From: an uncultured Planctomycetaceae bacterium
Lineage (GTDB): Bacteria; Planctomycetota; Planctomycetia; Planctomycetales; Planctomycetaceae
Direction of reading: 5' to 3'
NCBI GenBank assembly: GCA_964450955.1
Contig: CAYVFI010000032.1
Coordinates: 8,491-72,490 of the forward strand
DNA length: 64,000 nucleotides
Notes under the pieces: generated by a model
Seen by the model: only the letters and a program-made list of their open reading frames with translations
Told to the model about the DNA's origin: nothing
Databases searched by the model: none
Made by a program: the position numbers and the translations under genes
Shown here: positions 2,513 to 47,148 of the stretch, piece by piece
Layout: each line of letters opens with the position of its first letter
Numbering within the stretch: the first letter of the stretch is position 1

Positions 2513-2519
2513 TGTTGAC

Positions 2520-5500
2520 CTATGGACTAAACCGGAACTCGGGTGAGTTCATCATACTCCAGATCAGATCCTCAAGGCGTTCTCGCCAGTCCAGATCGAG
2601 CCGTTTCGTTGGCGGATCACCGCGGCGAACCACCTGCTCCAATTCCTGCTTGATCGTACTGGCTTCTTCTTCCAGATGATTAGACCACGATATTGTCCCC
2701 CGGCGATCGCGAGCCGGCTTGGTAATTGGTTCATTCGGACGCCGCCGCGTTTCAAAACCTGGCGACAACAAGTCAGTCACAATCTGAGCCTCAGTGATTG
2801 TCGGCCGCCGCGTGAACAGTCGCAGGTGGAGTTCTTCTGCAAGTTGCCGGACGCTGAGTTTCTCCTTCAAAGCAAGCTGCGTCAGCACGTGATCATCCGA
2901 AAGCCGACTGGCTCGTCTGGCAAGAACCCCATTGGCAAACTCAGCCGGTTGCAGAGCCGTGAGGTCATCAGGCCGTTCGTTAACCGGAGCCTGCCGCGCA
3001 CCCCGCCAGCCGAACTGTTCGAGAAACGTCACAAACGGTTGGGCGAACGGCATTGCCAGCCCCGGTCGATCGCGTTCGTTTGATGTCGATGTCAGCATCC
3101 ACGCGCGGCGCGGTGAACCGAGATTGAGTGACAGAGTGGCTGGCCGGGCTCCGTCGACATCGAACGCAATGAGACCCGCGTTGTATGGCTTGCCGCTAAA
3201 CACAAACATCGAATCCAAGAGCTGTTCGGCCATTAGCCGACGCTGTTGCGGACCCGCGAACTGTTCAGCCTGGTCCGATGCAACGGGAGCCCGTTGATAG
3301 ACCCGGCTGTTGAGAATCAATCGAGCGATGTGCTTGATGTCGTAACCGCTGACGATGAATTCGTTGGCCAGCCACTCCAGTAGTTTTGGATGCGATGGTT
3401 CAACGCCTTCCCAATCGTCCAGGTACTCAACCAAACCCCGGCCGAGGTAGCGATGCCAAAGTCGGTTCACCATGACTTTTGCAAAGCGTTCGTTTTGAGG
3501 CAGAGTCAGCAGGCCTGCCAATCGTTCTCGCGAGTCATCTTGATTTCGCAGGGCACCCGCGGGAATCATGTCGTTGGAATGTTCGGCGAATGTCCACGCA
3601 GGCAGCACTTTCGAACCCGGCTTCAGCGTCACCTTGACCGCCATGTGAGCCAACTCGTCAGCAGGCACATCGATCGAGCTTGTTTTGGGAACCTGTTCCG
3701 GCCCACGTTTCAGCATTGCAGCCAGGGAGAACAAATCTTTCTGCTGCACGTCATGGCTGGGGGCGTCGTGGCAGCGGGCACACTGCATTTGGATGCCGAG
3801 GAAGGCCTGGCCAATGATGTGCGATTTCGCGGCCATCGGAACGTCATTTTCTGACGCCATGCCGAACCCGGCCGGACCACCTTCAAACTTGCCACCCTCC
3901 ATCATGACTAGTTCGGTCACGAACCGATCGAAGGGTTTGTTCTCGAGGAATGACTCGTGAATCCACCACCGAAACGGCCCGGTGTTGTTAAGCGACGGGT
4001 TCACGATATTCGGATTCTCAGCCAGCACGTCCTGCCAGTAACCAACCCAATGATCGGCCCAGCCCTCTTCAGCCAACAGGCGATCAATCGCCCTGCCCCG
4101 CCTCGTCTGCGGCGTGTCGGCAAGGAAAGACTCAATGTGTGCACGTCCCGGAATGGTTCCGATGGTGTCTAAAGTGGCTCGTCGCAGGAACTCCAGATCG
4201 GCAAGTGGCCTGGCGACTGACACACTCTGTTCGGCGAGACCGCGATCAATGAACTGATCGATGGTTTGGGTGCGATCGTGTTGTCGGGCGGCAACATATT
4301 TGCGCGCCAGATCGTGGCGGAATTTCCAGTACTCAGTTTCCGTGGAACCAACCTCGTCACGGCGCCGTTTGTTGATCGCGATAAGCTGCTTGCGGTTCCA
4401 TTCCTGGAACTCGCTCCAGCCATCATCGGTCACATCAAACGACTGCCCAAAACTCACAATGCGAAAGTCACCAGACGCATCCGCGATACTGACCGAAGCG
4501 TCGCCCATTTCCGGCCGCCTGTTTTTCAAGCCGACCAGAATCTCCAGCCGCAGTCGGTGCGACTCATCGTTGCCATCAATCTCAACTACCGCCTGCCGAT
4601 CGCCCCGCTGCAATGGTCGAATGTTTGGGCTGTGGCTTCGATCGAGTTCCCAAATGGGACCGTTCGCATCAACCGTAATTTTGTACGGCTGCGTCTCTGC
4701 AACTTTCTGGTCATCAACAAACAGTCGCGACATCTCACGCGATCGAAGCAGGATGCGGTGCTCGCCTGAAGGAATTACGACATCGGCGTGAGCTCGAACC
4801 AAAAACGGTGTCGGGCGAGCCGTATGTACGCCACGTTCGTTGTACCGCTTTGGCAGCTCGGGGAATGCAAAGATGTCCGATGTAAACGACTCAGCAAATT
4901 TGGTTCCCCGGAAGTTCCAACCGTTGGGAACGCGTTCCAGAATCTCAACCAGTACTTTGTTTTGAGGAACCACAACCGGGGGAAGCGTGGGTGCGTTGTA
5001 CCGATAGCGCTGAGCAATCCGCGTGGCCGGTAATGCTCGGCGGTGAATCGCAATTTCATCCATTCGCCCGACGAACGAACTACCCGGGTTCCCGCCCATC
5101 GCAGCACCAATCCAGACCTCATCGTCATTCACCATCGGCGCGCGGGTCGTGTCACCGCCGAGTCCCCACTTGCCCGTAACACGTTCGCCATCGATGTAGC
5201 CGCGAACACTGCCCTTCTTCCCAAAGGTGTAGGTCAGCGCGACGTGGTGCCAGCCGTCGCCGACAGAGAACGTTTGGTTGGACTCCCACCGGTGATATTC
5301 GTTGCCTTCACCGCGGCTACGAAACAAGAACGAAAGCCCCGCGCTGCCGCTTTTCCTTTGCAGACGGAGGGCCCAGTTGTGGTTCTCTTTGACCTGCCCT
5401 GCCAGGTAAGTTCGCCCTTTGCCGATGATGTATGAATAACCGCCCGGCAGCCTGGTCGGAGCCACCCAAGCTTCGATTGTCATGCTGTCGCCAAGGTCAA

Positions 5501-5786
5501 AATCGAACGGGCTGTTTTCGCCGGGATCAGCGATCCGAAGATAGCTCCTACCGTTCAGCTTCAGCGCCGAATTATCTTCGGCGAACAGAGGGAACTCAGG
5601 CCCCATCGGCCCGGGTACTGTTTCAGGCTGTCCCACCAACTGCTGTTTGAAGTCGCCGCCAGTCGCAACCTCCACGAAGGACCAGTGAGCCGCGGGCTGA
5701 TCGCGGTGCAGTTGCTCAACGTGCTTGACCTGCGCAGTTGCGGGAAGGGCCACGGTGAAAATGGTAAGGATCGTGCGGTAGTGCAT
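2520..5786 (-). CDS. DUF1549/DUF1553 (PSCyt/PSD-type) protein with a LamG-like domain; signal peptide
   Basis: 1088 aa ORF with an N-terminal signal peptide (MHYRTILTIFTVALPATAQ). It carries a CARCHDAPSHD motif (DUF1549-like) and a WWIHESFLENKPFDRF block (DUF1553-like). An 8 nt gap separates it from the DUF1501 gene. Confidence 0.85.
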   Translation of the reverse strand: MHYRTILTIFTVALPATAQVKHVEQLHRDQPAAHWSFVEVATGGDFKQQLVGQPETVPGPMGPEFPLFAEDNSALKLNGRSYLRIADPGENSPFDFDLGDSMTIEAWVAPTRLPGGYSYIIGKGRTYLAGQVKENHNWALRLQRKSGSAGLSFLFRSRGEGNEYHRWESNQTFSVGDGWHHVALTYTFGKKGSVRGYIDGERVTGKWGLGGDTTRAPMVNDDEVWIGAAMGGNPGSSFVGRMDEIAIHRRALPATRIAQRYRYNAPTLPPVVVPQNKVLVEILERVPNGWNFRGTKFAESFTSDIFAFPELPKRYNERGVHTARPTPFLVRAHADVVIPSGEHRILLRSREMSRLFVDDQKVAETQPYKITVDANGPIWELDRSHSPNIRPLQRGDRQAVVEIDGNDESHRLRLEILVGLKNRRPEMGDASVSIADASGDFRIVSFGQSFDVTDDGWSEFQEWNRKQLIAINKRRRDEVGSTETEYWKFRHDLARKYVAARQHDRTQTIDQFIDRGLAEQSVSVARPLADLEFLRRATLDTIGTIPGRAHIESFLADTPQTRRGRAIDRLLAEEGWADHWVGYWQDVLAENPNIVNPSLNNTGPFRWWIHESFLENKPFDRFVTELVMMEGGKFEGGPAGFGMASENDVPMAAKSHIIGQAFLGIQMQCARCHDAPSHDVQQKDLFSLAAMLKRGPEQVPKTSSIDVPADELAHMAVKVTLKPGSKVLPAWTFAEHSNDMIPAGALRNQDDSRERLAGLLTLPQNERFAKVMVNRLWHRYLGRGLVEYLDDWEGVEPSHPKLLEWLANEFIVSGYDIKHIARLILNSRVYQRAPVASDQAEQFAGPQQRRLMAEQLLDSMFVFSGKPYNAGLIAFDVDGARPATLSLNLGSPRRAWMLTSTSNERDRPGLAMPFAQPFVTFLEQFGWRGARQAPVNERPDDLTALQPAEFANGVLARRASRLSDDHVLTQLALKEKLSVRQLAEELHLRLFTRRPTITEAQIVTDLLSPGFETRRRPNEPITKPARDRRGTISWSNHLEEEASTIKQELEQVVRRGDPPTKRLDLDWRERLEDLIWSMMNSPEFRFSP

Positions 5787-5969
5787 TCTGAACCCAGTAT
5801 TCGAACCGATTCAGCATACCGACTCTGATGCACTCCGGGCGAGACAAGTCTCGAAATCACAACCAGCAGTCTGCCCATTTACGCGGTTCAGCCCATCATT
5901 GCGTCCCTCTTCTGTCGCCTGACAGGGGATTGATCATCGAAGGCCAGTCCTTTCAACACCAACGATAGA

Positions 5970-6629
5970 TTAGAACACAACATTGGAAGGCCCAATTTCA
6001 GAGTTTTGAAACTGCCTCTCCTCAGGAAGTGCATTCTGGATCAGATCCGAGAGTTCGCGGAACACTATGTCATCATTGATTTTGATTCCCGGAGCCGCTT
6101 TTTCCAAATACTCCAATCCATCTTTAGTTACGTTCGTCCCCGACAGATCTACAAACCGTAGTTTCTTGAGTTTGGCAATTTCCTGAATTCCGCTATCGGA
6201 AATGACCGTACCTGAAAGATCTAAATGCTTAATATCTGGTAAGTGTGCAAGAAGATCATGGATATTCTCATCAGTTAGTTTTTTAGACCCGCTCAGATTG
6301 ACATCCGAAAGCTCACTAAAAGGGAGCCGCACTAATTCGACCGCACTTTCGACCATTGACTGGTGACAAAACGGCCTCTGAGCTCCCGTTGAATCGCAGT
6401 AAAGCGACAACGTCGATCGACCGTCAAGCAATTCAACTAAGCGTTCTTGTTGATGGATATTATTTAGGCGAAGCCAGGCATAACCTACCAGAACACAGGA
6501 TGCCACCAAAGCAGGAAGAAACCTTCGGAGGCTGGGGCGCATAAGGGAAACCAAGTTTGCTTTGCTCACGGCAACACTCTTTCCACACACCCAAGTGAAA
6601 GTGAAAGCAGGGTGGGCAACGCCCACCAC
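5970..6629 (-). CDS. Leucine-rich repeat protein with an N-terminal membrane anchor
   Basis: 219 aa ORF with a hydrophobic N-terminal segment. It contains LRR-like repeats (LDLSGTVISDSGIQEIAKLKKLRFVDLSGTNVTKDGLEYL). Confidence 0.5.
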   Translation of the reverse strand: MVGVAHPAFTFTWVCGKSVAVSKANLVSLMRPSLRRFLPALVASCVLVGYAWLRLNNIHQQERLVELLDGRSTLSLYCDSTGAQRPFCHQSMVESAVELVRLPFSELSDVNLSGSKKLTDENIHDLLAHLPDIKHLDLSGTVISDSGIQEIAKLKKLRFVDLSGTNVTKDGLEYLEKAAPGIKINDDIVFRELSDLIQNALPEERQFQNSEIGPSNVVF

Positions 6630-6941: not shown

Positions 6942-8291
6942 TTACTCGCCGTCAGCGTCGCCTTTCTTCTCAGACTTGGCGTCTTTTTTCTCTTCCGAGT
7001 CGCCATCGTCTTCTTCAGATTCTTCTTCGTCTTCATCGTGGTTGCTGAGATCAACTTCGTGGCCGGCTTCGGCCATGAGTGTCTCAAGAGCTTTGTCGAG
7101 ACTAGCACCGCGAACGTTCTTGTAGCGAATTTTGCCTTCACCATCGAGGACATAGATTGTCGGCCAAGCGCTGACATTCCATGCTTTTGAAATTGGTCCG
7201 CGGGTGCCTTCCGGGCCATTCCAAAAACTACGCCACGAGATGTTCTCTTCTTCAAGAACGTCCTTCAGCTTTTCTCGATCACCGTCGCTGTTAACGCCAA
7301 TCAAAGCAAATGGTTTACCTGCGAGCTTCTTCACGAGCGACCGCTCGTGAGGGTACATAGCCCGGCAAGGTCCTCACCAATTGCCCCAGAAATCCAGCAA
7401 CACAATTTTGCCTCGATAGTCGGTGAGTTTGAACTCAACACCATCCAGGTCTTCGGCTGCGATTTCCGGAGCTTCTTTGCCAATGCTTAAGTACTGAATT
7501 TCGAACAGCGCGTCCTTCGCACTGTCGCCGATTGGTACCCCGCGTCGTTCGACAGAGGCGTACTTCTTCACCACGGTTTCGTAGAGCGCCTCAACTTCTT
7601 TCAGCGTCTCACCCTCGGCACCACGTGCCATCAGGTCGGCTAACGACATCGTCGCCAGAGCCTTTACAGTTTCGGAAGGGTTCTCTTTGATCAGCGATCG
7701 AAACCGTGCTTCGGCTTTCGGGCGAGGTACACCAAAGCCAGAGACTCCCACGACCAGCTCCATGGCTTCGCTGTCGGCGTAGTTTTCAAACATGAAGTCC
7801 AAAGCCGATTGCCGTTTCTCAGCCGGTCCATTGGCGGCAATCCACGCCATCGATTGAGCAGCAATCTGCTCCATCTCAGCCAGATATTGTTCTCTATCGG
7901 GTTGTCCCTTTGATTTCAGATATTTGGTGACCGCGTCGCGACCTTCCTTAGCTGCCTCGCGATAGCCTTTCATGAAGTTCTTGTCACGTGTCGCCTTCAT
8001 GAACTCCTGAGTCTTGCTGTCGTAAGAATCAGTCAGACTCCTGACGGCATCGAGAGCCGGGGTCTTCACGACTTCTTTGACGGCTTCCTTTTCAGGAGCA
8101 TCTTCGTCTTTCGAGTCATCTTCTTCTTTGGCGTCTTTCTTTGCTTCTTCCTTTTCGCCCTTTTCCTGGTCTTCAGCCTTCTTGTCTTCCTGAACCGGAG
8201 CAAAGGCTACCGGATCTGGTTCAAACGCGTTTGTCGCGTCGAGGCCGAACAACAGCAAGAGGCCGGCGATCAATATGCCGGAGTGCCGCAT
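6942..8291 (-). CDS. TlpA/ResA-like thioredoxin-family protein, candidate selenoprotein. An in-frame TGA at 7374..7376 is read as Sec, giving the motif W-U-G-P-C.
   Basis: ORFs 7374..8456 (ending ...KIVLLDFWGNW*) and 6942..7358 are in the same frame and separated only by a TGA. Translating through it gives FWGNW-U-GPCRAMYPHERSLVKKLAGKPFALIGVNSD, a textbook thioredoxin WCGPC active site with Sec in place of the first Cys. The probable start is MRHSGILIAGLLLLFG at 8291 (signal peptide). Acidic K/E/D-rich low-complexity regions follow the signal peptide and occupy the C-terminus. Confidence 0.6.
7331..7350 (-). promoter_or_regulatory. Candidate bacterial SECIS hairpin downstream of the UGA at 7374..7376
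   Basis: The mRNA 3' of the UGA is GGACCUUGCCGGGCUAUGUACCC then UCACGAGC-GGUC-GCUCGUGA. This is a perfect 8 bp stem with a 4 nt loop containing G and U, starting 24 nt after the UGA. Confidence 0.4.
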
Positions 8292-8441
8292 GGTCTGTCT
8301 CCAAAGTGGTAAATGGGGTTTGGTCAAATGGATTGTGTCTTGAATTGCATCCGACCGAAAGTTCAAACATCGGTAAAGAGCACGGTTTGTCTCACGCACT
8401 GGCATTCTGTGCCCACCAGCTTCACGATATAGGAATACCGT

Positions 8442-10262
8442 TTGAACCGAGAACATCGACCCATGACTGTTAAGTCCCTTGCATTCACGCTGCTACTCGC
8501 CCTTTCTGCTCAAGTGCTGGCTGTCGAACGGCCCAACATCCTGTTCATCACAGTCGATGACATGAGCTGCGATTCCGTTGGAGTTTATGGCTGCAAATTA
8601 ATCGGCACGACGCCCAATATGGATAAATTGGCCGGCACAGGCCTGCGGTTTCAGCACGCTCACGTGCAGGTCGGCAACTGTATGCCGTCCCGAAACGTAA
8701 TGTGGACGGGACGGTATCCGCACAACAACCGAGTCGAAGGTTTCTATCAGATCAAGAACCCGGAGTATCCTCATCTTGTGGATTTGATGAAGGGGGCCGG
8801 TTACTTCGCGGCCATCCGCGGCAAGCATACTCACTCAACACCATACAACCCATACGCCTGGGATATCGTGCTGGATGGAAACAACGGTCGGAACAACCTG
8901 AAGAACGCCGCGTCGTACTACGATTCGACAAAGCAAGGCATAATCCAAAGTGGCGACAAACCGTTCTGCGTCATGGTCAACATTTCTGATCCGCACAAGC
9001 CGTTCTACACGGGCCCGAACGATCCGAATCAACCATCGAAGACGTTCAAGGCAGCCGAAATACCGGTTCCTGGATTTCTGTTTGATAACCCTCAGATTCG
9101 AAAAGAACTCGCGCTGTACTACTCGTCAGTGCGACGGGCTGACGACTGTGTAGGTTCAGTTCTGAAAGCACTGGATGAATCGGGTGAGCGTGAGAACACG
9201 ATCGTCTGCTTTCTGTCAGACCACGGCATGCCACTGCCGTTTGCGAAAACTCAGCTGTACCGACACAGCACGCATACACCGCTGATGATTCGCTGGCCGG
9301 GCGTGACTAAACCAAATTCGGTTGATGATACGCACGTTGTGTCTGCCATTGACTTGCTGCCCACACTGCTGGACATGACGGGAACCAAACACCCGGACGG
9401 TCTGGAGGGGCATTCGTTGGTTCCGATACTTAAAGGCGAGACACAGAGCGATAGGGAATTTGTGTTTAAGGTCTACAACGAAAACGCCGGCGGGGTTCGA
9501 CAACCAATGCGAAGTGTCGATTCCAAACGGTTCGGCTACATCTTTAATCCATGGTCAGACGGAAAACGAAAGCTCACAGGCGCGACGTTGGGGACGGCTT
9601 CCTACAAGGCCATGCAACATGCGGCACCCAACAACCCATTCGTTTCATCAAGGCTCAATACATTCGTGTATCGAGAGCGCGAAGAGTTCTTCGACTACGA
9701 GGCCGATCCCGACGCGCTGCGGAACCTGATTGACGATCCAAAATACGCAGACCAAATCGCCAGGCACCGCGCGGCGATGGTGGGGTTCATGACGCGAACG
9801 CACGACCACATGCTAAACGTCTTCAAGAACCGCGGCGACGAACAAACAGTTCAGGCCTATATGTCCAAAGTCGAATCGGAATCCGCCGCTCGGCGTAAGA
9901 AGAAGCGAGCCGCAAAACAAAGCGGGCAAAACAGACAAAACGGCGGTGCGAGACGAAAACGTAAACTGATTTCTATCAAGCCAGGCGACGCCAGGTCAGG
10001 CGAACCGCTAACGGTGATCATTAACCACAAGTTGCCCAAAGCGCTGGGAGAACAGAAAGTGCATGTCACCCTGAAGAATGCCGATCAGAAGCGGATCGAC
10101 CGGCAAGTCATCACAGTCAGCGGCACCGGTCGGGCCACGGTCACATTCAATGTCGATGAAGACAAAATCGCGAATGGCCCAGTGTCCTACGCCGCATTTG
10201 TTGGCGAAAATTACGGCAGCAATCTGCAGCATGTGACATCGAAGCCAGTGAAGGTTCGCTGA
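8442..10262 (+). CDS. Sulfatase (arylsulfatase family), secreted, with a basic linker and an extra C-terminal domain
   Basis: 606 aa ORF with a signal peptide. The sulfatase signature C-x-P-S-R is present (GNCMPSRNVMWTGRYP). A C-terminal RRKKKRAAK...RRKRK basic stretch is followed by a ~100 aa domain. Confidence 0.85.
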   Translation: MNREHRPMTVKSLAFTLLLALSAQVLAVERPNILFITVDDMSCDSVGVYGCKLIGTTPNMDKLAGTGLRFQHAHVQVGNCMPSRNVMWTGRYPHNNRVEGFYQIKNPEYPHLVDLMKGAGYFAAIRGKHTHSTPYNPYAWDIVLDGNNGRNNLKNAASYYDSTKQGIIQSGDKPFCVMVNISDPHKPFYTGPNDPNQPSKTFKAAEIPVPGFLFDNPQIRKELALYYSSVRRADDCVGSVLKALDESGERENTIVCFLSDHGMPLPFAKTQLYRHSTHTPLMIRWPGVTKPNSVDDTHVVSAIDLLPTLLDMTGTKHPDGLEGHSLVPILKGETQSDREFVFKVYNENAGGVRQPMRSVDSKRFGYIFNPWSDGKRKLTGATLGTASYKAMQHAAPNNPFVSSRLNTFVYREREEFFDYEADPDALRNLIDDPKYADQIARHRAAMVGFMTRTHDHMLNVFKNRGDEQTVQAYMSKVESESAARRKKKRAAKQSGQNRQNGGARRKRKLISIKPGDARSGEPLTVIINHKLPKALGEQKVHVTLKNADQKRIDRQVITVSGTGRATVTFNVDEDKIANGPVSYAAFVGENYGSNLQHVTSKPVKVR

Positions 10263-22251: not shown

Positions 22252-23751
22252 CTACTTTTGGCCGAAGTCGTTGTACATTTTTTGGATTTGTTGTCGGCTT
22301 CGGATGCTGGGTTTGGTGCCGCCGTAATATTTGTCGCGGATCCACTTTGGTTGCCAGCGATCGGGAACGCGTTTGGTCGTTGAGAAATCTACGGCTTTGG
22401 GCTTTGGCTTCTTGCTGGTGAGTGGCACCTTGTCGCCCCAGGCTTTCTGCCAGTCCGATAGTTTGGTCATGAGCCGATCGACGTGCGGTTTGTGGTCGGC
22501 CGAATTGGCAAGGTTCTTCATTTCGCTGGGGTCGTTTTTCAAATCAAACAGCTGGGTGTGATTGATTTGTGGATAACGAATCAGCTTCCAGCGGTCTTCA
22601 CGCACCGATCGTTGATGGCTGGTGTACTGCAGGTAAACCTCGTCGCGAACTTTGTTTCTGGTTCCCTTCCAAATCGATGAGAGGTCTTCTCCATCCAGGT
22701 TGGCAGGCGCTTTGAGTCCTGTCATTGAACACAGCGTCGGGTAGATGTCCAGCAGGTAAGAGAACGCGTTGGTTGATTTGCCGGCGGGGATACCGTCCCC
22801 GACGAAGACCAACGGGCACCGCATGCTGTGTTCGTAAACGCTTTGTTTGCCCAGCAAGCCATGGCTTCCCATCGCCAGGCCATGATCGGCGGCATAGATG
22901 ATGATTGTGTTGTCCGCTCTGCCTGAATCTTCCAGAGCTTTCAGAACGCGCCCGATCTCGACATCCAGGTGATCGACCATGCCGTAGTATTCTGCCAGTT
23001 GATCACTCACCATATCTTTGGGTCGCGGCCAGGGAGCCAGGCTTTCGTCGCGACCCGTCATGAAGCCGTTGTTGAACGGATGCTGTGGCAGAAAGTTGTC
23101 GGGCAGCGGAGGCCGTTTGTTGTAGTACTTTTTCCGGTACTCCTGCGGTGGCTGACGCGGGTCGTGCGGAGATGTAAACGCGGCGTAGGCGAAGAACGGT
23201 TCTTCTGAATCCTTCTGCTTGCTTAGAAAATCAGTCATCGCATCTGCGAACAACGTGCTGGAGAACCCGTCACCAATCCGCTTGTTCACAAGTTTTCCGT
23301 CAACAATGTCCTGCAGCGGAACCTGAATGTGGTCGCTCATGCCGCCCATGTACACGGCCTTGCCGCTTTCAAAGCTGCGCAGGATTGATTGGTCGCCGTT
23401 GTGCCATTTGCCGGTTGCGAATGTCTTGTAGCCCTGCGTTTGCAGCAGCTGACCCAGCGTCGTTTCGCCCTTCATGAGATTGTTTGAATGCATCCAGTGC
23501 TTGCCCGTGTGCAGCATGGCTCGACTGGGAACACAGACGGCTCCGGAGTTAGAACCGAAGCAGTAGTTCTGCTTGAAACTGAAACCACGCTTCACCAGCG
23601 AATCGATATTCGGCGTATCGATATTGGGGTTCCCCCAGGCACCAATTGTGTCGGCACGTTGGTCGTCGGCAAACAGCAAGAGGATGTTGGGACGTTCGGC
23701 TGCGTGCAGTTGAGGGAGAACCAGAATTGCGAGGATCAGAATGCGTTTCAT
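22252..23751 (-). CDS. Sulfatase (arylsulfatase family), secreted
   Basis: The start is set at MKRILILAILVLPQLHAAERPNILLLFADD (ATG at 23751) rather than the longer upstream ORF. The sulfatase signature is present (CVPSRAMLHTGKHW). Confidence 0.85.
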   Translation of the reverse strand: MKRILILAILVLPQLHAAERPNILLLFADDQRADTIGAWGNPNIDTPNIDSLVKRGFSFKQNYCFGSNSGAVCVPSRAMLHTGKHWMHSNNLMKGETTLGQLLQTQGYKTFATGKWHNGDQSILRSFESGKAVYMGGMSDHIQVPLQDIVDGKLVNKRIGDGFSSTLFADAMTDFLSKQKDSEEPFFAYAAFTSPHDPRQPPQEYRKKYYNKRPPLPDNFLPQHPFNNGFMTGRDESLAPWPRPKDMVSDQLAEYYGMVDHLDVEIGRVLKALEDSGRADNTIIIYAADHGLAMGSHGLLGKQSVYEHSMRCPLVFVGDGIPAGKSTNAFSYLLDIYPTLCSMTGLKAPANLDGEDLSSIWKGTRNKVRDEVYLQYTSHQRSVREDRWKLIRYPQINHTQLFDLKNDPSEMKNLANSADHKPHVDRLMTKLSDWQKAWGDKVPLTSKKPKPKAVDFSTTKRVPDRWQPKWIRDKYYGGTKPSIRSRQQIQKMYNDFGQK

Positions 23752-24016
23752 CGGTGAGTTCTCGTGGTGAGTCGTTGTTGCTATGTCTGGGCGGAGTGGC
23801 GCGCGGAGGGGCTGAGGATAAACTGGATGCTCACTGTTTTTGGGTGGCCGTGTTTGGATTGAGGAACCAGCGAATCTCCGGTAGTTTCGGGGCTTCTTTC
23901 GCAGGCTCATTCCAGTCCTGGCTTGCCACGCAACCTGTTTTACGGCCAGGTCGTGGCGAACAAAGCGGCCGCCGCGATTATTTTCGAACCGCAGCGGCCG
24001 CAATGTCAGTCGCTTA

Positions 24017-25492
24017 TCACTTCCAGCCCGCACCCTTCGTGCTGGTTTTCACTCGGCAGACAAATGCGTCAGCCGTGATATAAAGAGTCGTTCCATCGCC
24101 GCCCCAGCCGCAGTTGGCTGTCGCCTGACCGGTATCGATTCGACCCAGTGGAGTTCCATCCGGTGCGAAGACATGAACGCCGCCGGGGCCGGTGGCGAAC
24201 AGGTTGCCTGCTTTGTCGACCTTGAGACCATCGGGTAGTCCCTTCATCTTGCCGACCAATGAGGTCGCGTCGAAAAAGACTTTGCCCGGGCCAATGGTTC
24301 CATCGTCTTTGACGGGGAACGCTTTCCAGATGGCGGCCTTCGGATCTGACTGGGCGACATACAGAGTTTTCTCATCGGGAGAAAACGCGATGCCGTTTGG
24401 CCTGGTCATCTCTTTGGTCAGCAGCGTTAGCTGGCCGTCTTTTGAGAGACGGTAGACGCCGCAGAAGTCGAGTTCCCGACGTGGGTCGTCAAACCGTTTC
24501 GGAAGCCCGTACGGCGGATCCGTGAAATATAGATCGCCGTTGGATTTGAAGCAGGCGTCGTTGGGGCTGTTAAGCCGCTTGCCCATGTAGTTGTCAACGA
24601 GAGTCCGCTTGCCGCCGTCTTTCGTTATCACAGACACGCGGCGATCGCCGTGTTCGCACGAAACCAAACGACCCATGGAATCCAGCAGCAAGCCGTTGCA
24701 ACCAGGTTCTCCACCGTACTTGCTGACGCCAGTGAAACCTGACGGCTTCAGATACACCTTCGCTTCGCTCCAACCTTCCCGCCACTGATACACTGAGTTG
24801 CGCGGGATGTCAGAGAATAGAAGCGAACCGCCTTCGTCGTCGGCGACCCAGACAGGCCCTTCCGACCAGTCGTGGCCTTTGGCCAGTACTTCGATTGACG
24901 CTCCAGTCGGAATCAGTTTGTCGAACCGTGGATCCAGACGAACGATGTTGCCAAAGCCAGAACCTGCTGACGCGCTTGCCTGAGCCACGCCAAGTTCTTT
25001 TAGCTTACGAACAAGATCGCTACCCGCGTTTCGTGTTCCACCCCGCTCGATTGCGGCGATCTTGCCGTTCTTGTCGATGTAGATTGTCTTGCGAGCCGGA
25101 TACAGCCGGTTTGGGTTCGTGACGACACCGTATGCCATCGCGACCTTGCCGGTTGGATCACTGAGAATTGGATAGTCGAGATCAAGGTTCCTGGCGAACC
25201 GGGTATTGATCTTGATGGGGTCACAACTGGCGGTGAAGTAGGCAACGTCGAAGGCCTTAATGGCTTTGCCGCTCTCACGGAGCGACTTGCATTGAGCCGT
25301 TCAACCGCCGGTTTCGGCCTTTGGGAACCATGACAGCACGACGGCTTTGCCTTTCATGTCAGCAAGTGCGTAAGTCTTGCCATCACTACCCTGCAAGCTG
25401 AAGTCAGGCGCGGTGTCGCCCACGCTAAGTTGTTGGGCAGATGCGGGAATCGCACATGCCAGCAGTGCGGCCAAAACTGTTGCGGCACGCAT
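24017..25492 (-). CDS. Fusion protein: BCP-type peroxiredoxin with selenocysteine at the peroxidatic position (in-frame TGA at 25301..25303) plus an SMP-30/gluconolactonase/LRE-like beta-propeller
   Basis: ORF 25301..25585 ends ...[13 protein letters not shown]. Reading through the TGA continues in frame as [65 protein letters not shown]...[13 protein letters not shown] and joins ORF 24017..25138. The region aligns residue by residue with E. coli Bcp (FYPKAMTPGCTVQAC; CP=Cys45 becomes U, CR=Cys50 conserved). The likely start is [20 protein letters not shown] (signal peptide, ATG at 25492). Confidence 0.6.
25268..25286 (-). promoter_or_regulatory. Candidate bacterial SECIS hairpin downstream of the UGA at 25301..25303
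   Basis: The mRNA after the UGA is ACGGCUCAAUGCAA then GUCGCUC-CGUGA-GAGCGGC. This is a 7 bp stem (one G.U pair) with a 5 nt loop containing G and U, starting 15 nt after the UGA. Confidence 0.4.
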
Positions 25493-25746
25493 AGATGTTT
25501 CTCCTGGTGGAAGTCTTGATGGGGGAGCAGCAGTGTCAAGTGTTGCCTGAGTCTTCAGAGTCTGGTTTGAATCACTGTTGGTCACTGTGAAGCAAGCAAT
25601 GGACCAACGGTCCTAAACTGAAAATCGTGGCACAGCACTAGTTCAATTGTGATCACTGACTGCGTCAAGTGGCTCACTAATTGTACCCGGATTGGCCAGG
25701 TGGTGCTTTAGTCACGGTGCTGAAAACCAGGACTGGTTCGTAACGA

Positions 25747-26361
25747 TTGCCGCTGAATCGAAGGAACCGTAAGGCTTCACTGCATTTCGTGTTGAGTCAG
25801 CCTGCAAACACTGACAGGGCTCAGGTTGACTCATTCAGAGTGCTCCTATCAAATTGCGGCTCAACCAACGCGTTCAGGAAGCGAATCGTGGCACGACCCA
25901 TCTGGCTGCAACTTAACCAAAGCGACTCACCCCACGGCGACGTCGTATTGTCTTTCGGGCAAACTCAACAAACCGAAGATTCTTACTACTTCGCGATCGA
26001 TTCGAATGTGAGCCCCGGCGACGAGTCTCCGCAAAAGGCGGCTCTCGTGATGGCCGGGCTGTTGGGTCAGTGGTTGAGTCGTTTGGATGCCAGTGAGAAC
26101 GCGTACTTGCCGGTTGGGTTTTCTGACCAAAGCATGACGTGGCTTTACGCAGAACAAACCGGCGAAACCACAAAGCTGACTTTGGGCTGGTCGGAAGACG
26201 AAGGCTGGTCGGTGTTACCATCAGACGTTGGCGATAAGAACCCGGCCGCGTTTACTGCGATGGATGACGTGGAACCAGTCACCCTGTATGGACCGCGGTT
26301 GTTGAGCTTGGTTCGTTGGAACCGGTGCGTCTTAGGTGAAACTGCCAAAGCTGATACTTAA
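25747..26361 (+). CDS. Hypothetical protein (weak)
   Basis: 204 aa ORF in an otherwise empty 1.3 kb stretch. No motifs recognised; the start is uncertain. Confidence 0.25.
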   Translation: MPLNRRNRKASLHFVLSQPANTDRAQVDSFRVLLSNCGSTNAFRKRIVARPIWLQLNQSDSPHGDVVLSFGQTQQTEDSYYFAIDSNVSPGDESPQKAALVMAGLLGQWLSRLDASENAYLPVGFSDQSMTWLYAEQTGETTKLTLGWSEDEGWSVLPSDVGDKNPAAFTAMDDVEPVTLYGPRLLSLVRWNRCVLGETAKADT

Positions 26362-26916: not shown

Positions 26917-28134
26917 TTACCGCTCTGTAAGCAGTTCCTTCACAAGTTCTTCATATCGCGCGCGAAGCTTTTTGTAGGCTTCGCCGGTGGCGGGGCCGCT
27001 GAATCCGGTGTACACGGCGCGCACACTTCCGTCGGCTCGAACAAAAATGGTGGTCGGGTACGAACGCACTTTGTCGATCAGCGGGAACTGCCTGGTCGCG
27101 GTGGACTTGTCTGACAAACCCGCCAGCAGAACCGGATACTGTGTGTTGTGGCGTTTGATGTATCGCTTCACCATTTCGACATCACGATCGAACTCGCCCG
27201 TGTGTTCGAACGCCAGGCCCACAATCGAAAGGCCACGCGGACCGTACTTGTTTTGCAGTTCAGAAAGATACAGGGCCGCGTCATGACAGTTGGGACACCA
27301 CGAACCAAACACCTGAATGAGCCGCGCTTTGCCGGCGAATTTTGGGTCACCCAGCGACGTCAGTTTGCCGTCAAGATCCGGGTACTTGATGTCGTTTAAG
27401 TTCACATCCTTAAGCACCGTGGACAGCCGGAACGCGTCGGGCAGTTCGGCCTTCGGATCCAGCTTCCCCGCGAATGTCTCGTGCCAGCTGTTACCCGACC
27501 AAAAATCACCGGCCAGCGTTCCATCTTCTTGTCGCTGCATCCGAAACAAAAACGCATGCGCGCCGTCGAAGACTGAGAGTTCAACGGAGTCCGGTTTCGC
27601 TGGCGGCTGAATTGTCAGGAACCGATAGTCGCCCGTTGTTGTGAGGAACGTGCCCCACGGCGCGTTGTCGGTTTTTCGAATGGAGAAGACACCCAGCGCG
27701 GGGTCATCGCTTTCAGAAAACTTCACGGACCACTTACCGACGTATGGTTTGAACGCAGCGTCTTGCGATGGAACCGATGACATTGGCCGCGCGACGAATT
27801 TCATCTCGCCGTAGCGTTCTTTGCCACGCCGTTTGCGGTATTGACCGACCAACTGATCGCCGTCAAGCCTGGCTTTTATCGTAGAATCGTAGTGTGGGAA
27901 CGACAGCGTGATGTTGTCGCCGTCCACCCGGACCATTGGGATTTCGATTCTCTCCAACGGATCCGAAATCGCGGCCGACCATTTGCCATCGCTGGAAGAA
28001 AGCAGCAGCGGGAACCGAATTGGCCCGCCCGGTGTTTGCAATTGAGCGTCATATTGGCCCGGTTTGATATCGGCCGCGTAAAGATTGCCTGCAGTCAGGG
28101 ACAGCAGGAACACGAAAATGACAGGGCGATACAT
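26917..28134 (-). CDS. TlpA-like thioredoxin-family protein (Cys form, WCPNC) with a large N-terminal domain; secreted
   Basis: The C-terminal thioredoxin fold has active site VFGSWCPNCHDAALYL. The start is set at MYRPVIFVFLLSLTAGNLYA (signal peptide). Confidence 0.75.
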   Translation of the reverse strand: MYRPVIFVFLLSLTAGNLYAADIKPGQYDAQLQTPGGPIRFPLLLSSSDGKWSAAISDPLERIEIPMVRVDGDNITLSFPHYDSTIKARLDGDQLVGQYRKRRGKERYGEMKFVARPMSSVPSQDAAFKPYVGKWSVKFSESDDPALGVFSIRKTDNAPWGTFLTTTGDYRFLTIQPPAKPDSVELSVFDGAHAFLFRMQRQEDGTLAGDFWSGNSWHETFAGKLDPKAELPDAFRLSTVLKDVNLNDIKYPDLDGKLTSLGDPKFAGKARLIQVFGSWCPNCHDAALYLSELQNKYGPRGLSIVGLAFEHTGEFDRDVEMVKRYIKRHNTQYPVLLAGLSDKSTATRQFPLIDKVRSYPTTIFVRADGSVRAVYTGFSGPATGEAYKKLRARYEELVKELLTER

Positions 28135-28207
28135 GCGACTCTCCAGTAGGGAGAATGCAACGTACCAGTCGAAGTGACCGCATTCCACTCAACCGCCGGA
28201 CGGGCTT

Positions 28208-43364: not shown

Positions 43365-43458
43365 CGGGAATGGATGGGAATCGAACCCACCTGGCGACTT
43401 TTCAGCCGCCACAACGGATTTGAAATCCGCGGCAGTCACCAGATCTGCGAACACTCCC
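43365..43458 (-). tRNA. selC: Candidate selenocysteine tRNA (anticodon UCA)
   Basis: The minus-strand sequence is GGGAGTG-TTC-GCAG-ATCTGGTGA-CTGC-C-GCGGA-TTTCAAA-TCCGT-TGT-GGCGGC-TGAAAA-GTCGCC-AG-GGTGGG-TTCGATT-CCCATC-CATTCCC-G. The acceptor stem is 7 bp and the T stem 6 bp, giving a 13 bp coaxial acceptor/T domain. The anticodon loop is UUUCAAA, with U33, anticodon UCA and A37. The variable arm is long (6 bp stem, 6 nt loop). The T-loop is TTCGATT, the discriminator is G73, and CCA is not encoded. The D-arm fold is ambiguous by eye. Confidence 0.65.
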
Positions 43459-43894: not shown

Positions 43895-45682
43895 ATGAGA
43901 TGCCGCGTCCTGGGTTGTGCCGCCTGCATGTTGGTTGTCGTCAGTCTGGTAGGTTCGCCGACGTTCGCGGGTACATTTCCGATTAACGGTCCCGAGGACG
44001 CAGTTCGAATCAGGACCCGTGTTCGGGCGGCTCAATTCCTGACGCATGCCACTTACGGTCCGAAGTACGATGAGATTCTGAGCCTGGCGAAACGGATGGA
44101 GCAGATTGGTGTCCGACCGGCTTGCGAGGAATGGATTGATCGGCAGTTTAAACTTCCGATCACGAAGCATCAGTCGATGGTTTATGCGATGTTGGAGGCA
44201 GACAATATCGACCCGCTGGAGTACCGCCAGGATGGTAAGCGGTTCCGTCAGCATGCGTGGTGGACTGCGGCTCTGTCAGCAGAAGATCAGCTTCGCCAAC
44301 GAATGGCGTTTGCTCTGATGCAGTTCTTTGTTGTTGGTGACAGCGGCCAGAGCTTCAATAACCACCGCATAGACAGCAGTGGCAACGTGCGATTCACCGG
44401 AATCGTAAACTACTACGACATGCTGTTGGAGAACTCGTTCGGCTTCTATCGAGAGACGCTGGAAGACGTTACGTACCACCCCATCATGGGCGTCTGGCTA
44501 AGCCACCTGGGCAACCGCAAGCCAGATACTTCGATCGACCGTTTTCCTGATGAGAATTTCGCTCGAGAGATCATGCAGTTGTTTTCAATCGGATTGCATC
44601 AGCTAAACCAGGATGGGACACCAAAACTGGATGACGCAGGCCGCCTGATTCCCACCTACGACAACGAGACCGTCAGGGCCTACGCACGAGTCTTTACAGG
44701 ATTCGTGTACGCTAGAGGCACCGGTCTTGATCGAGCGAAAAATCTGCACGAACGAATGCAGCTGCTTGAGAGTGAACACGACACCGCAAGGAAAGTTGTT
44801 CTGGACCGAGTGATTCCCGCCGGCCAGTCAGCCAGCGACGACATTCGCATGGCTCTTAACAGCATCAACAAGCACCCCAATGTTGGCCCGTTTCTGGCTC
44901 GACACCTGATTCAGCGGTTCGTGCAGTCAAACCCTGCGCCGGCGTATGTCAGGCGGGTTGCGAATGTCTTCAATAACAACGGCAACGGCCGCCGCGGTGA
45001 TTTTAAAGCCGTACTCAAGGCCGTCCTGTTGGATAACGAGGCATTCAGCGGAGTCCGAATTTCGATTCGCGAGGATGAGGTTCGCGTGCGATCTACCGAT
45101 GGCGAAAGTAGTCGGCTACGCGAACCTATTCTTCGTTATGCGGCATTCCTGCGAGCGTTTGATGCGAAGTCGGACCACTTGACCGGCCGATTCATGATTC
45201 CTGACATGTACCCGATTTGGGATCAGGCGAACTACAAATCGCCAACCGTCTTTAACTTCTTCTCATCAGGTTTTCGTCCGCCCGGGATCCTGATGGACTA
45301 CCGGCCAGAGAAGGTCCTGCCACATGATGTGCTGGTTGCTCCTGAGTTTCAGATCCTGACGACTCGGACGGCCAACCAGATAGCGAATCAGCTTCGAGAC
45401 GACGTGATGGATGCAAGCGCCGACTTTAAGTTGGGCAGCGTTCCGAATGGTCGCTCTTTTAGCACGAGTGTTGCTTTGGATTTCAGCAGGGTGCGAAACA
45501 TGACGGGGCCATCTCGCATCGTGCAGCGTCTGGATCTCATGCTATGTCACGGGACCTTAAGCGATGAGACGCAGAAGGTAATCCGGAACGCGATCGCAGA
45601 GGAAACCGACGACCATGAAGAACGCATCCGTGCCGCGATTCTTTGCGTGCTGACTTCGCCGGACTGCATCATCAGCGAATAG
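43895..45682 (+). CDS. DUF1800 domain protein, secreted
   Basis: 595 aa ORF with a signal peptide. It is followed 65 nt downstream by a DUF1501 gene, the canonical DUF1800/DUF1501 pair. Confidence 0.8.
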   Translation: MRCRVLGCAACMLVVVSLVGSPTFAGTFPINGPEDAVRIRTRVRAAQFLTHATYGPKYDEILSLAKRMEQIGVRPACEEWIDRQFKLPITKHQSMVYAMLEADNIDPLEYRQDGKRFRQHAWWTAALSAEDQLRQRMAFALMQFFVVGDSGQSFNNHRIDSSGNVRFTGIVNYYDMLLENSFGFYRETLEDVTYHPIMGVWLSHLGNRKPDTSIDRFPDENFAREIMQLFSIGLHQLNQDGTPKLDDAGRLIPTYDNETVRAYARVFTGFVYARGTGLDRAKNLHERMQLLESEHDTARKVVLDRVIPAGQSASDDIRMALNSINKHPNVGPFLARHLIQRFVQSNPAPAYVRRVANVFNNNGNGRRGDFKAVLKAVLLDNEAFSGVRISIREDEVRVRSTDGESSRLREPILRYAAFLRAFDAKSDHLTGRFMIPDMYPIWDQANYKSPTVFNFFSSGFRPPGILMDYRPEKVLPHDVLVAPEFQILTTRTANQIANQLRDDVMDASADFKLGSVPNGRSFSTSVALDFSRVRNMTGPSRIVQRLDLMLCHGTLSDETQKVIRNAIAEETDDHEERIRAAILCVLTSPDCIISE

Positions 45683-45747
45683 TCGGGGCGCACCAGACAT
45701 CGTCAGGCCGGCTCTTAAGTTGACCACTCATATCCACGGACGGAACT

Positions 45748-47148
45748 ATGTACCCTCTCAATTTGGCTCAGGCCCTCAGTCGTCGGAACGTGCTTAAGCT
45801 TGCAGGTGGTTGTGCAGCCATGACGGCCGGTTCGGTTTTGTCGACGATCACAGGCCTAAGCCTTACCAGGTCCGCATGGGCGGCCGCTCCGACGTCGGTT
45901 GAGGACGATTACAAGGCACTGGTTTGTATCTACCTGTTTGGTGGGAACGATTCTTTCAACATGTTGGTACCGCGAGAAGCGGAGGAATACCAGGATTACT
46001 CTGAGGCTCGCCAGCAGATGGCTCTGGCCTCAAAAGACTTGTTGCCGATCAGCGACCAGAGCGGCCGGGCGTTTGGGCTGCATCCGGCCATGACCGACCT
46101 GAAGAAGATCTACAACGACGGTGATCTTGCTTTCGTTTCCAACGTAGGTGCTCTTGTACGCCCGACAACACTGGCTGACTATCGCCGCAATCTGGCGTTG
46201 CCGGTTGGGTTGTTCTCACACCCCGACCAGTCGCGCCACTGGCAGACGTCAATTCCTGAGTCGCGTACAGGTGTGACGGGCTGGGCGGGACGGATGGCGG
46301 ACATTTTGAATGATTCGACGAATGACAATCCGCACATTGCGATGAACATTGCAATCGATTCTGTGAACCTGTTTCAGACAGGACGCGAAGTCGTCCCTTA
46401 TGTCGTCAAAGCAAAAAAGCTGGCCGGATACCGAAAGACAGCCCGCGCGATGGATCGAATCTATACGCGGGCGACCGACGAGATGCTGGATCGTCGATAC
46501 TCAAATGTTATGGAGCAGGCTTTTGCAACGGTGAAACGCGGCTCTGTCGATGCTGCGATTAGTTACGCCAAAGCGATTAACGGTGTTTCCTCTGACATTC
46601 CGTTTCCCAACACGCAGCTTGGCAATCAGCTTGAACTTATCGCTCGAACCATCACAGCGCGAGAAACACTGGGTCAGAAGAGACAGGTATACTTTGCGCT
46701 GGTTGGTGGCTGGGACTTCCACGACGAAGTTCTCAATGCCCAACGCGACCTGCTGAAACAGGTGAACGATGCATTTGCTGCGTTCAATTCGGCGATGAAA
46801 GGAATGGGCATCCATGACAAAGTCACGACATTCACCGCGTCGGACTTCGGACGCACGCTAAGTTCAAATGGAAACGGAACCGACCATGCCTGGGGCGGCA
46901 ATCAAATGATTATGGGTGGTGGAGTGCAGGGGGGTGTGTTCGGTCAGTACCCCGGTTCGCTAAGAGACGACAAGTTGAACATTGGACGCGGGCGTCTTCT
47001 GCCGACTACGTCAGTGGATGAGTTTAACGCAGAGCTTGCAATGTGGTTTGGGATCGACAACGGCAACAGCCTTGAAGCGATCCTGCCCAACATTCGCCGC
47101 TTCTACAACGCAGGTTTGACAAGAGGTCCGCTTGGCTTCATGGGATAG
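45748..47148 (+). CDS. DUF1501 domain protein with a TAT signal
   Basis: 466 aa ORF. The N-terminus is MYPLNLAQALSRRNVLKLAGGCAAMTAGSV. Conserved DUF1501 C-terminal blocks are present (DHAWGGNQMIMGGGVQGG). Confidence 0.85.
   Translation: MYPLNLAQALSRRNVLKLAGGCAAMTAGSVLSTITGLSLTRSAWAAAPTSVEDDYKALVCIYLFGGNDSFNMLVPREAEEYQDYSEARQQMALASKDLLPISDQSGRAFGLHPAMTDLKKIYNDGDLAFVSNVGALVRPTTLADYRRNLALPVGLFSHPDQSRHWQTSIPESRTGVTGWAGRMADILNDSTNDNPHIAMNIAIDSVNLFQTGREVVPYVVKAKKLAGYRKTARAMDRIYTRATDEMLDRRYSNVMEQAFATVKRGSVDAAISYAKAINGVSSDIPFPNTQLGNQLELIARTITARETLGQKRQVYFALVGGWDFHDEVLNAQRDLLKQVNDAFAAFNSAMKGMGIHDKVTTFTASDFGRTLSSNGNGTDHAWGGNQMIMGGGVQGGVFGQYPGSLRDDKLNIGRGRLLPTTSVDEFNAELAMWFGIDNGNSLEAILPNIRRFYNAGLTRGPLGFMG

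Follow-up and report, generated by a model that had tools for sequence, protein, structure and literature searches.

This locus raises the question of whether an in-frame TGA codon ends one gene and precedes another, or instead specifies selenocysteine (Sec) within a single one. It lies on the minus strand of a 64,000-nucleotide stretch of DNA from an uncultured Planctomycetaceae bacterium (contig CAYVFI010000032.1, positions 8,491 to 72,490), hereafter the window, and combines the coding sequence of a peroxiredoxin (Prx) with that of a propeller of the SMP-30/gluconolactonase/LRE (SGL) family. An earlier interpretation of the letters alone, here called the sequence-only reading, had proposed one secreted selenoprotein of about 490 residues, made up of a signal peptide, a Prx with Sec at the peroxidatic position and an SGL propeller. 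Profile searches, a conserved TGA codon with its selenocysteine insertion sequence (SECIS), a tRNA-Sec gene and eight further fused genes all sustain that proposal, and we regard it as very probable that the locus is a single gene for an exported two-domain Sec-Prx/SGL selenoprotein, acting by the mechanism proposed below.

Read from the ATG at 25492, the frame contains exactly one internal stop, the TGA at 25303..25301, and closes with the TGA at 24019..24017, which is followed by an in-frame TAA. In agreement with the sequence-only reading, the open reading frame (ORF) 25301..25585 (minus strand, 94 amino acids) halts at the internal TGA after ...WFPKAETGG, and 54 stop-free codons link that TGA to the 373-amino-acid SGL ORF 24017..25138 in the same frame, so that 491 codons are interrupted by one TGA only. 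For the profile searches the TGA was read as Cys. The Pfam profile AhpC-TSA (PF00578) matches the read-through product across the TGA with 103.7 bits against a cut-off of 26 (E 8e-30; profile positions 1-123 of 124), and on its C-terminal side the SGL profile (PF08450) matches with 140.4 bits against a cut-off of 26.3 (E 1e-40; profile positions 1-244 of 246). The first of these matches spans nearly the whole profile across the TGA, and the Prx domain is therefore complete only if this codon is decoded. The set of residues that defines peroxiredoxins, Pro-x3-Thr-x2-Cys/Sec plus a catalytic Arg (PMC13188914, PMC3322552), is present as P57-KAE-T61-GG-U64 with Arg134, accompanied by a second cysteine, Cys68. 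In the 11 closest Cys-type homologs, which are secreted peroxiredoxins of about 178 amino acids, 56-61% identical and with the motif WFPKAFTGGCTxEC at the aligned site, P57, T61, C64, C68 and R134 are all invariant. The TGA thus falls exactly on their invariant cysteine, as expected if the peroxidatic Cys had been replaced by Sec, and the catalytic Cys of homologs is the typical site of Sec/Cys exchange (PMC1794560). Among the PDB relatives of the domain (3drn, 5epf), R134 aligns with the Arg of 3drn (PARITF).

The arrangement recurs. Nine distinct fused genes, the one in the window included, were found in independent assemblies, and all of them share the same TGA codon, the hairpin discussed below and one open frame of 484-491 residues. 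The orthologs are L001, L002/3, L004/5, L006, L007, L008, L009/10 and L014, the last of which, a Planctomycetaceae metagenome-assembled genome (MAG), came from a genome scan. The closest database relatives (P0001-P0007, 73-97% identical) are called as propeller ORFs that start inside the Prx domain, and each of their contigs has a short AhpC-TSA ORF terminated by a TGA at the same codon, beyond which the frame stays open into the propeller. Every public assembly examined splits the locus likewise, into an ORF of 62-96 amino acids and one of 367-408 amino acids; the fused gene would accordingly be systematically mis-annotated as a Prx stub followed by a "gluconolactonase" that begins in the middle of the Prx domain. 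The stand-alone Sec-peroxiredoxin described below would be mis-called in the same way, in at least 120 species genomes. The internal Met chosen by the gene callers is not conserved, being replaced by Arg, Gly or Thr in L001, L005, L007 and L014. None of the nine fused genes has lost the TGA, which also stands in the stand-alone form of the Prx in at least 120 species genomes; among the fused genes it is invariant amid neighboring Gly codons that vary synonymously. Since 11 independent contigs carry the TGA, its origin as an assembly artefact is very unlikely. Taken on the letters of these loci, the pseudogene, two-gene and assembly-artefact readings are effectively excluded.

A second line of evidence comes from the RNA. 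The hairpin that the sequence-only reading had placed downstream of the UGA, with a 7-base-pair stem and a CGUGA loop, was recovered at the same positions; its stem has seven pairs, one of them G-U, and a spacer of 14 nucleotides separates it from the UGA, distance and loop being judged by the criteria of the bSECISearch description. Its pairing is conserved in Sec-type relatives, for all seven stem pairs are formed in 98 of 118 distinct Sec-type sequences versus 6 of 116 distinct Cys-type sequences (Fisher p 2e-37), the Cys-type controls having been gathered by a metagenome scan with the same pattern as the Sec-type ones. Likewise, in these GC-rich genomes the loop Arg is encoded by CGU in 110 of 116 Sec-type genes versus 10 of 47 Cys-type genes. 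Compensatory changes preserve pairing at stem pairs 1, 4, 5 and 7, and within the fused genes alone pair 5 passes from C-G to U-A, with a simultaneous change from Leu..Ser to Phe..Asn in the protein. We thus take the hairpin to be a genuine bacterial SECIS, with apparent selection at the RNA level in the TGA forms only. A search of the window with Rfam at the gathering threshold returned tRNA-Sec only, and no SECIS family. The tRNA-Sec gene is flanked by DUF1800/DUF1501 genes and not by selA or selB. Together, the tRNA-Sec, the invariant aligned Cys, the recurrent TGA across species and the selection on the SECIS indicate that the UGA at 25303..25301 is decoded as selenocysteine. The family as a whole offers a large natural set of Sec/Cys pairs with a highly conserved SECIS embedded in the coding sequence.

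Two explanations that dispense with selenium can be set aside at this point. That the TGA truly terminates translation, or marks the decay of a pseudogene, leaving a 63-residue Prx fragment plus a propeller translated from the internal ATG at 25138, or no product at all, is how gene callers treat the locus in every public assembly examined, and is nevertheless of negligible probability given a Pfam domain that spans the codon, a TGA that stays fixed where flanking codons drift, the covariation of the SECIS, the presence of tRNA-Sec, the unconserved internal Met and a product of ATG 25138 that would comprise half a Prx and a propeller with no leader, unlike all stand-alone relatives. Low-level readthrough of UGA is known to occur in bacteria. 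Nevertheless, readthrough here without Sec, by near-cognate insertion of Trp or Cys or under a reassigned code, can be dismissed almost completely, because the stop codon of the fused gene is UGA, with UAA after it, and its neighbors also end in TGA, which indicates a standard genetic code, and because selection maintains a hairpin with a conserved G-containing loop in the TGA forms alone, the window has its own tRNA-Sec gene and the UGA stands at the catalytic Cys of the homologs (PMC1794560).

Within the Sec-peroxiredoxins, a subgroup with the motif KSLRxSSD..., consisting mostly of MAGs labelled Vicinamibacterales, has the 7-base-pair register broken (L012, L030, L052, L056, L073, L083, L092, L093, L103 and L113); in its stead there seems to be a GCUG...CAGC stem, shorter and with a larger loop, in what would amount to a variant SECIS geometry.

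The affiliation of the Prx domain differs from the one first proposed. According to the sequence-only reading it was a BCP-type enzyme aligning position for position with E. coli Bcp, with the resolving Cys conserved. The second cysteine is indeed invariant in the 11 Cys-type homologs, as noted above; its spacing, however, is +4 from Sec (U64-TAQ-C68) and not the +5 of Bcp, and in an ungapped alignment to BCP-type structures such as 5epf (CTKEAC) their +5 Cys falls on Lys69. The positional match to Bcp is consequently lost. Assignment to BCP in the strict sense also fails, in view of the missing CxxxxC spacing and of a score of 72.1 bits for the BCP equivalog NF006960, below its cut-off of 140. 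The models for PrxQ (NF053650, 51.8 bits versus 260) and for the PrxU equivalog (NF040737, 37.7 bits versus 270) likewise remain below their cut-offs, and in NCBIfam no dedicated model matched the Prx domain of the window protein. These scores point to a distinct secreted subfamily that is neither a BCP, nor a PrxQ, nor a PrxU equivalog, and that, judged by its active site, belongs to the known PxxxTxxU family of Prx selenoproteins. With PrxU of Eubacterium acidaminophilum, the prototype of that family, the window protein shares the AhpC/TSA fold and a Sec in PxxxTxxU, and the interchange of Sec and Cys with homologs is common to both (PMC1794560, PMC13188914). Unlike PrxU, it has a predicted export leader, a second Cys at +4 and a C-terminal propeller. 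PprX of Caulobacter crescentus is another exported peroxidase with a signal sequence, in this case BCP/PrxQ-like and, unlike the window protein, Cys-based and single-domain; it is recycled in the envelope by electron flow from ScsB/DsbD through TlpA to the Prx (PMC3322552). The likeness to PprX is one of type and export, and the window gene has no linked ScsB or TlpA gene.

How rare is the fusion? The genome scan used a DNA pattern fixed by the flanking amino acids plus TGA, with one genome per species, and returned at least 120 stretches (L011-L130). A stand-alone secreted Sec-peroxiredoxin with the motif WFPKAFTGG-U-TxEC is thus present in at least 120 species genomes from several phyla, the MAGs being labelled Acidobacteriota, Planctomycetota, Verrucomicrobiota, Gammaproteobacteria, Myxococcota and others, and nearly all scan matches listed are stand-alone genes with 105-115 codons past the TGA. 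Among the 120 species genomes listed, an SGL domain occurs within 8 kb of the Sec module in L014 only, where it is fused, and no SGL gene was found near any stand-alone Sec-peroxiredoxin in the 8 kb fetched around the matches listed. Long post-UGA ORFs in L020, L114, L117, L121 and L234 were considered as further fusions and rejected as high-GC or frameshift artefacts. The protein searches, which were inspected at the top of each match list and leave room for more distant, independent AhpC/TSA plus SGL architectures, gave a concordant picture. In a search of 5.8 billion proteins no Cys-type Prx-SGL protein appeared above the SGL-only matches, which such a protein would outscore; there was no Prx-SGL fusion in the 120 closest Prx homologs, and none in the best 150 of 1.84 billion representatives when the 427 residues after the UGA served as query. 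By Pfam, the identifiable N-terminal domains of ten longer matches among those representatives were DUF983, HbpS-like, DUF4082 or Fn3/GH3, the rest having none recognisable. In the searchable literature nothing was found that unites selenoprotein, peroxiredoxin, gluconolactonase and fusion, and overviews of bacterial selenoproteins from 2026 mention neither Planctomycetes nor gluconolactonase. The sequence-only reading had held that Sec-Prx proteins are known in some bacteria and that the fusion to SGL is unusual; the second part stands, and the stand-alone form proves commoner than was implied. What appears to be new, then, is the fusion to the propeller in a small planctomycete group, the Sec-peroxiredoxin module itself being known and common. 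The finding is moderately surprising and does not overturn current understanding, and it adds predicted selenoproteins exported by the Sec pathway to those of the Planctomycetota.

The comparison with the stand-alone proteins suggests how the gene was assembled. The stand-alone Sec/Cys peroxiredoxins, WFPKAFTGG(U/C)TxEC proteins of about 175 amino acids, have the same leader, active site, +4 Cys, C-terminal ...KLKELGV helix and SECIS hairpin; over its residues 1-167 the window protein shares 55-65% identity with them, and they end where its linker begins. Aligned with them, the fused proteins show a complete Prx as far as the ...KLKELGV helix, then a short and flexible linker, then a mature propeller. 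The Ala/Gly/Ser/Pro junction measures 5-11 residues and varies in length by whole codons. In stand-alone SGL proteins this position holds the signal peptide, all aligned relatives of that kind (about 75% identical) starting with a leader of their own, and this leader has been lost in the fused genes, because of which export of the propeller would depend on read-through of the UGA. The fusion therefore seems to have arisen when a complete secreted Sec-peroxiredoxin was joined to an SGL protein, likewise secreted, of which only the mature part was kept. In a neighbor-joining tree, the Prx domains of the fused genes cluster in one group of 19, whose members include six verrucomicrobial Sec forms that stand alone and a single Cys form; a single fusion event is likely on this topology, which is compatible with Sec having been in place beforehand. 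As for the leader that remains, its pattern by eye is M-R, a hydrophobic stretch of 14 residues and AxA, common to all fused and stand-alone homologs; it contains one Arg, with no twin-arginine motif, and its Cys13 is not conserved, for which reason we recognise no lipobox.

The propeller, a complete domain of the six-bladed type, carries the motifs WSEGP (209), NSPND (308), RPNG (364) and LPDGL (419), and its PDB relatives are the putative gluconolactonase 3e5z (E 7e-43) and the exported gluconolactonase 3dr2 (E 7e-39), in both of which E211 (WSEGP), N311 (NSPND), N366 (PNG) and D421 (PDG) are aligned identically. Given this exact correspondence, the hydrolase centre seems to be intact; E211, N311, N366 and D421 are presumably the metal ligands of the lactonase centre. 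The structure 3dr2 is XC5397 of Xanthomonas campestris, an exported protein; both 3dr2 and 3e5z match over the full length of the propeller, yet are only about 35-40% identical to that of the window and, unlike it, are stand-alone proteins with their own leader. The stand-alone SGL orthologs, about 75% identical between phyla, are uncharacterised secreted proteins of unusually high conservation, and several propeller Cys are conserved across fused and stand-alone forms. The fusion accordingly provides a lead on the role of these proteins in soil and aquatic bacteria. Proteins of about 850 amino acids with two copies of the same SGL propeller (P0008-P0023) are common in Vicinamibacteria and others.

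Prx-glutaredoxin hybrids are other natural peroxiredoxin fusions. In classical Prx fusions, e.g. the BCP-NADH dehydrogenase/nitroreductase of PDB 4eo3, the partner feeds electrons to the Prx, whereas here it would be a hydrolase, which is unusual for a peroxiredoxin. A comparable case was found in L205 (metagenome contig JGI12210J13797_10944910) and P0391-P0393, the latter from Neorhodopirellula pilleata and two other clusters: here the same secreted peroxiredoxin, in its Cys form, is followed by a 3-keto-disaccharide hydrolase domain (PF06439/DUF1080), for a total of 406 amino acids. This fusion is Cys-type and all SGL fusions are Sec-type, and both place the same Prx family N-terminal to a secreted module of hydrolase type. 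By domain content, the Prx-DUF1080 protein appears to be an independent case, the second in which this peroxiredoxin has been joined to a secreted module with an annotation for oxidised sugars. The Neorhodopirellula pilleata member is named "family 16 glycoside hydrolase" at NCBI.

We hypothesize that the fused protein would be exported to the periplasm by the predicted Sec-dependent route, where Sec64 would reduce H2O2 or organic hydroperoxides and pass to a selenenic acid, which Cys68 would resolve to a selenenylsulfide. By analogy with PprX, a thioredoxin-like periplasmic protein fed by a membrane transporter of the DsbD/ScsB type may then re-reduce the selenenylsulfide. The propeller would act as a divalent-metal-dependent hydrolase of lactonase type and, as the most speculative step, the tether might place peroxide removal beside the hydrolysis of oxidised sugars in the envelope.

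Two further alternatives concern what the domains do. The N-terminal domain might be a thiol/selenol-disulfide oxidoreductase that keeps a Cys-rich propeller or its substrate redox-tuned, and not a peroxide scavenger, as may be suggested by the U-x3-C spacing in place of the +5 of BCP, by weak matches to NCBIfam ResA-like models (46.7 bits versus a cut-off of 170) and by the conserved propeller cysteines. We consider this improbable, since the Pro-x3-Thr-x2-Sec plus Arg set is complete and invariant, ResA and TlpA use CxxC and lack that set, and no such domain is needed by the stand-alone propeller. Far better does the view survive that the fused selenoprotein is real and its domains have no catalytic relationship, sharing merely a leader and expression as a tolerated, lineage-restricted accident. 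It is the main rival to coupling, and we hold it to be a serious possibility, if short of an even one. All 9 fused genes belong to one small planctomycete clade, and of the 120 Sec-peroxiredoxin species genomes listed only one has the fusion; elsewhere the modules overwhelmingly stand alone and are never adjacent, and the linker is short, variable and of low complexity. On the other side, the architecture has persisted through divergence to about 62% identity in the Prx and about 80% in the propeller, and the same Prx has been fused independently, in the DUF1080 protein, to a hydrolase annotated for oxidised sugars, neither of which proves coupling.

The opposite view, a bifunctional envelope enzyme with both domains on one pathway, for instance clearing the H2O2 and the sugar lactone of periplasmic carbohydrate oxidation, we regard as rather unlikely, and catalytic coupling of the domains in general lies in our estimate between rather unlikely and doubtful. 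Since oxidised sugars are the substrates of lactonases and of 3-keto-glycoside hydrolases alike, it is attractive to connect peroxide removal with the oxidation of sugars in the periplasm, although the cases behind this connection are few and come from genomes in which such domains abound. If coupling were true, the Prx-DUF1080 fusion would point to a strategy general among planctomycetes, in which the removal of peroxide is tied to the degradation of oxidised sugars.

Several points weigh against the proposal of an exported, peroxide-reducing selenoprotein with a lactonase partner. Selenium incorporation and the peroxidase and lactonase activities are read from sequence, and the signal peptide is predicted by eye. 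The resolving step at Cys68 is assumed, its +4 spacing being unlike that of the characterised BCP/PrxQ enzymes. Among the 34 larger ORFs of the window, Pfam revealed no selA, selB or selD. No conserved thioredoxin-like or DsbD-like partner lies beside the fused gene or the 120 stand-alone Sec-peroxiredoxin genes, three stand-alone SGL orthologs share no conserved neighborhood, and the conserved neighbors of the fused gene (a sulfatase and a small ORF, described below) give no pointer to a sugar oxidase. Planctomycetes have so many sulfatases and DUF1080 domains that adjacency, or one further fusion, could be due to chance.

The features of the fused gene and of its surroundings are collected in Table 1.

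Table 1. Location of the fused gene, its parts and other features in the window (minus, complementary strand; plus, strand as presented)
Feature	Position	Strand	Details
Whole fused gene, predicted	24017..25492	minus	491 codons, Met1..Lys491 with Sec64, plus stop TGA 24019..24017
Shine-Dalgarno-like AGGAGA	25500..25505	minus	7 nucleotides before ATG 25492, read from sequence
Predicted Sec-type signal peptide, 19 residues	25436..25492	minus	cleavage after ASA (ASA/QQ); by inspection only
Peroxiredoxin (AhpC/TSA) domain, residues 24-147	25052..25423	minus	Pfam PF00578
UGA, predicted selenocysteine codon, residue 64, peroxidatic position	25301..25303	minus	aligned with invariant Cys of Cys-type homologs
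Candidate bacterial SECIS hairpin	25268..25286	minus	GUCGCUC / CGUGA / GAGCGGC; 7-base-pair stem
Ala/Gly/Ser-rich linker, residues 168-179	24956..24991	minus	between complete peroxiredoxin and mature propeller start
SMP-30/gluconolactonase/LRE (SGL) propeller domain, residues 209-474	24071..24868	minus	Pfam PF08450
Terminator-like hairpin, 15-base-pair stem then UUUGUU	23965..24001	minus	16 nucleotides past stop codon
Sulfatase gene (Sulfatase + SGSH_C)	22252..23751	minus	Pfam; downstream of fused gene
Small ORF with no Pfam family	25747..26361	plus	divergent from fused gene; neighbor conserved by tblastn
tRNA-Sec gene, anticodon UCA	43365..43458	minus	ARAGORN; Rfam RF01852, 65.6 bits versus gathering score 47
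Second candidate selenoprotein gene	6945..8456	minus	UGA 7376..7374; 360-amino-acid ORF to TGA

Orthologs of the sulfatase (72-94% identity) lie directly downstream of the fused gene in L009, L001, L002 and L008 as well, that is, in five of the nine fused loci, and in three of these the sulfatase gene overlaps the stop codon of the fused gene. The small ORF, of about 155 amino acids and with no signal peptide, stands beside the fused gene in four distinct loci, namely the window, L009/10 (L009 8827..9438), L001 (4991..5467) and L002/3 (L002 5160..5606). It is also found at 4480..5004 of L253, directly upstream of a stand-alone SGL gene, co-directional with it and overlapping its start, and may from this placement be a functional partner of the propeller. 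A SelA gene at 1671..3035 of L253, a short metagenome contig, is 2 kb away from that stand-alone SGL gene, probably by coincidence. Around the stand-alone Sec-peroxiredoxin genes, the nearest ORFs on either side of about 80 of them belong to no recurrent family, the maximum being 4 of 81.

Farther upstream in the window, at a distance of 1.4 kb and on the same strand, an ORF of 423 amino acids (26917..28188, minus strand) has a C-terminal Redoxin/AhpC-TSA domain (residues 265-398); it follows a HEAT-repeat ORF, and synteny is shared with the nearest relative, L009 (6819..8084), alone. The regions 1..6000 and 43895..47148 contain PSCyt2/PSD1, DUF1501 and DUF1800 genes, several sulfatases and a Ser/Thr kinase with TPR repeats. 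Such gene content is typical of planctomycetes and agrees with the labelling of the fused relative L014 as Planctomycetaceae.

The claim of the sequence-only reading that a second UGA occupies a redox active site elsewhere in the window also proved correct. In the second candidate selenoprotein gene the UGA stands in the context ...LLDFWGNW-U-GPCRAMYP, i.e. the WCGPC motif of thioredoxins with Sec in place of the first Cys, and the 143 in-frame codons that follow match Thioredoxin_8 from profile position 15 onward. An 8-base-pair hairpin with a GUCG loop lies about 26 nucleotides downstream of this UGA.

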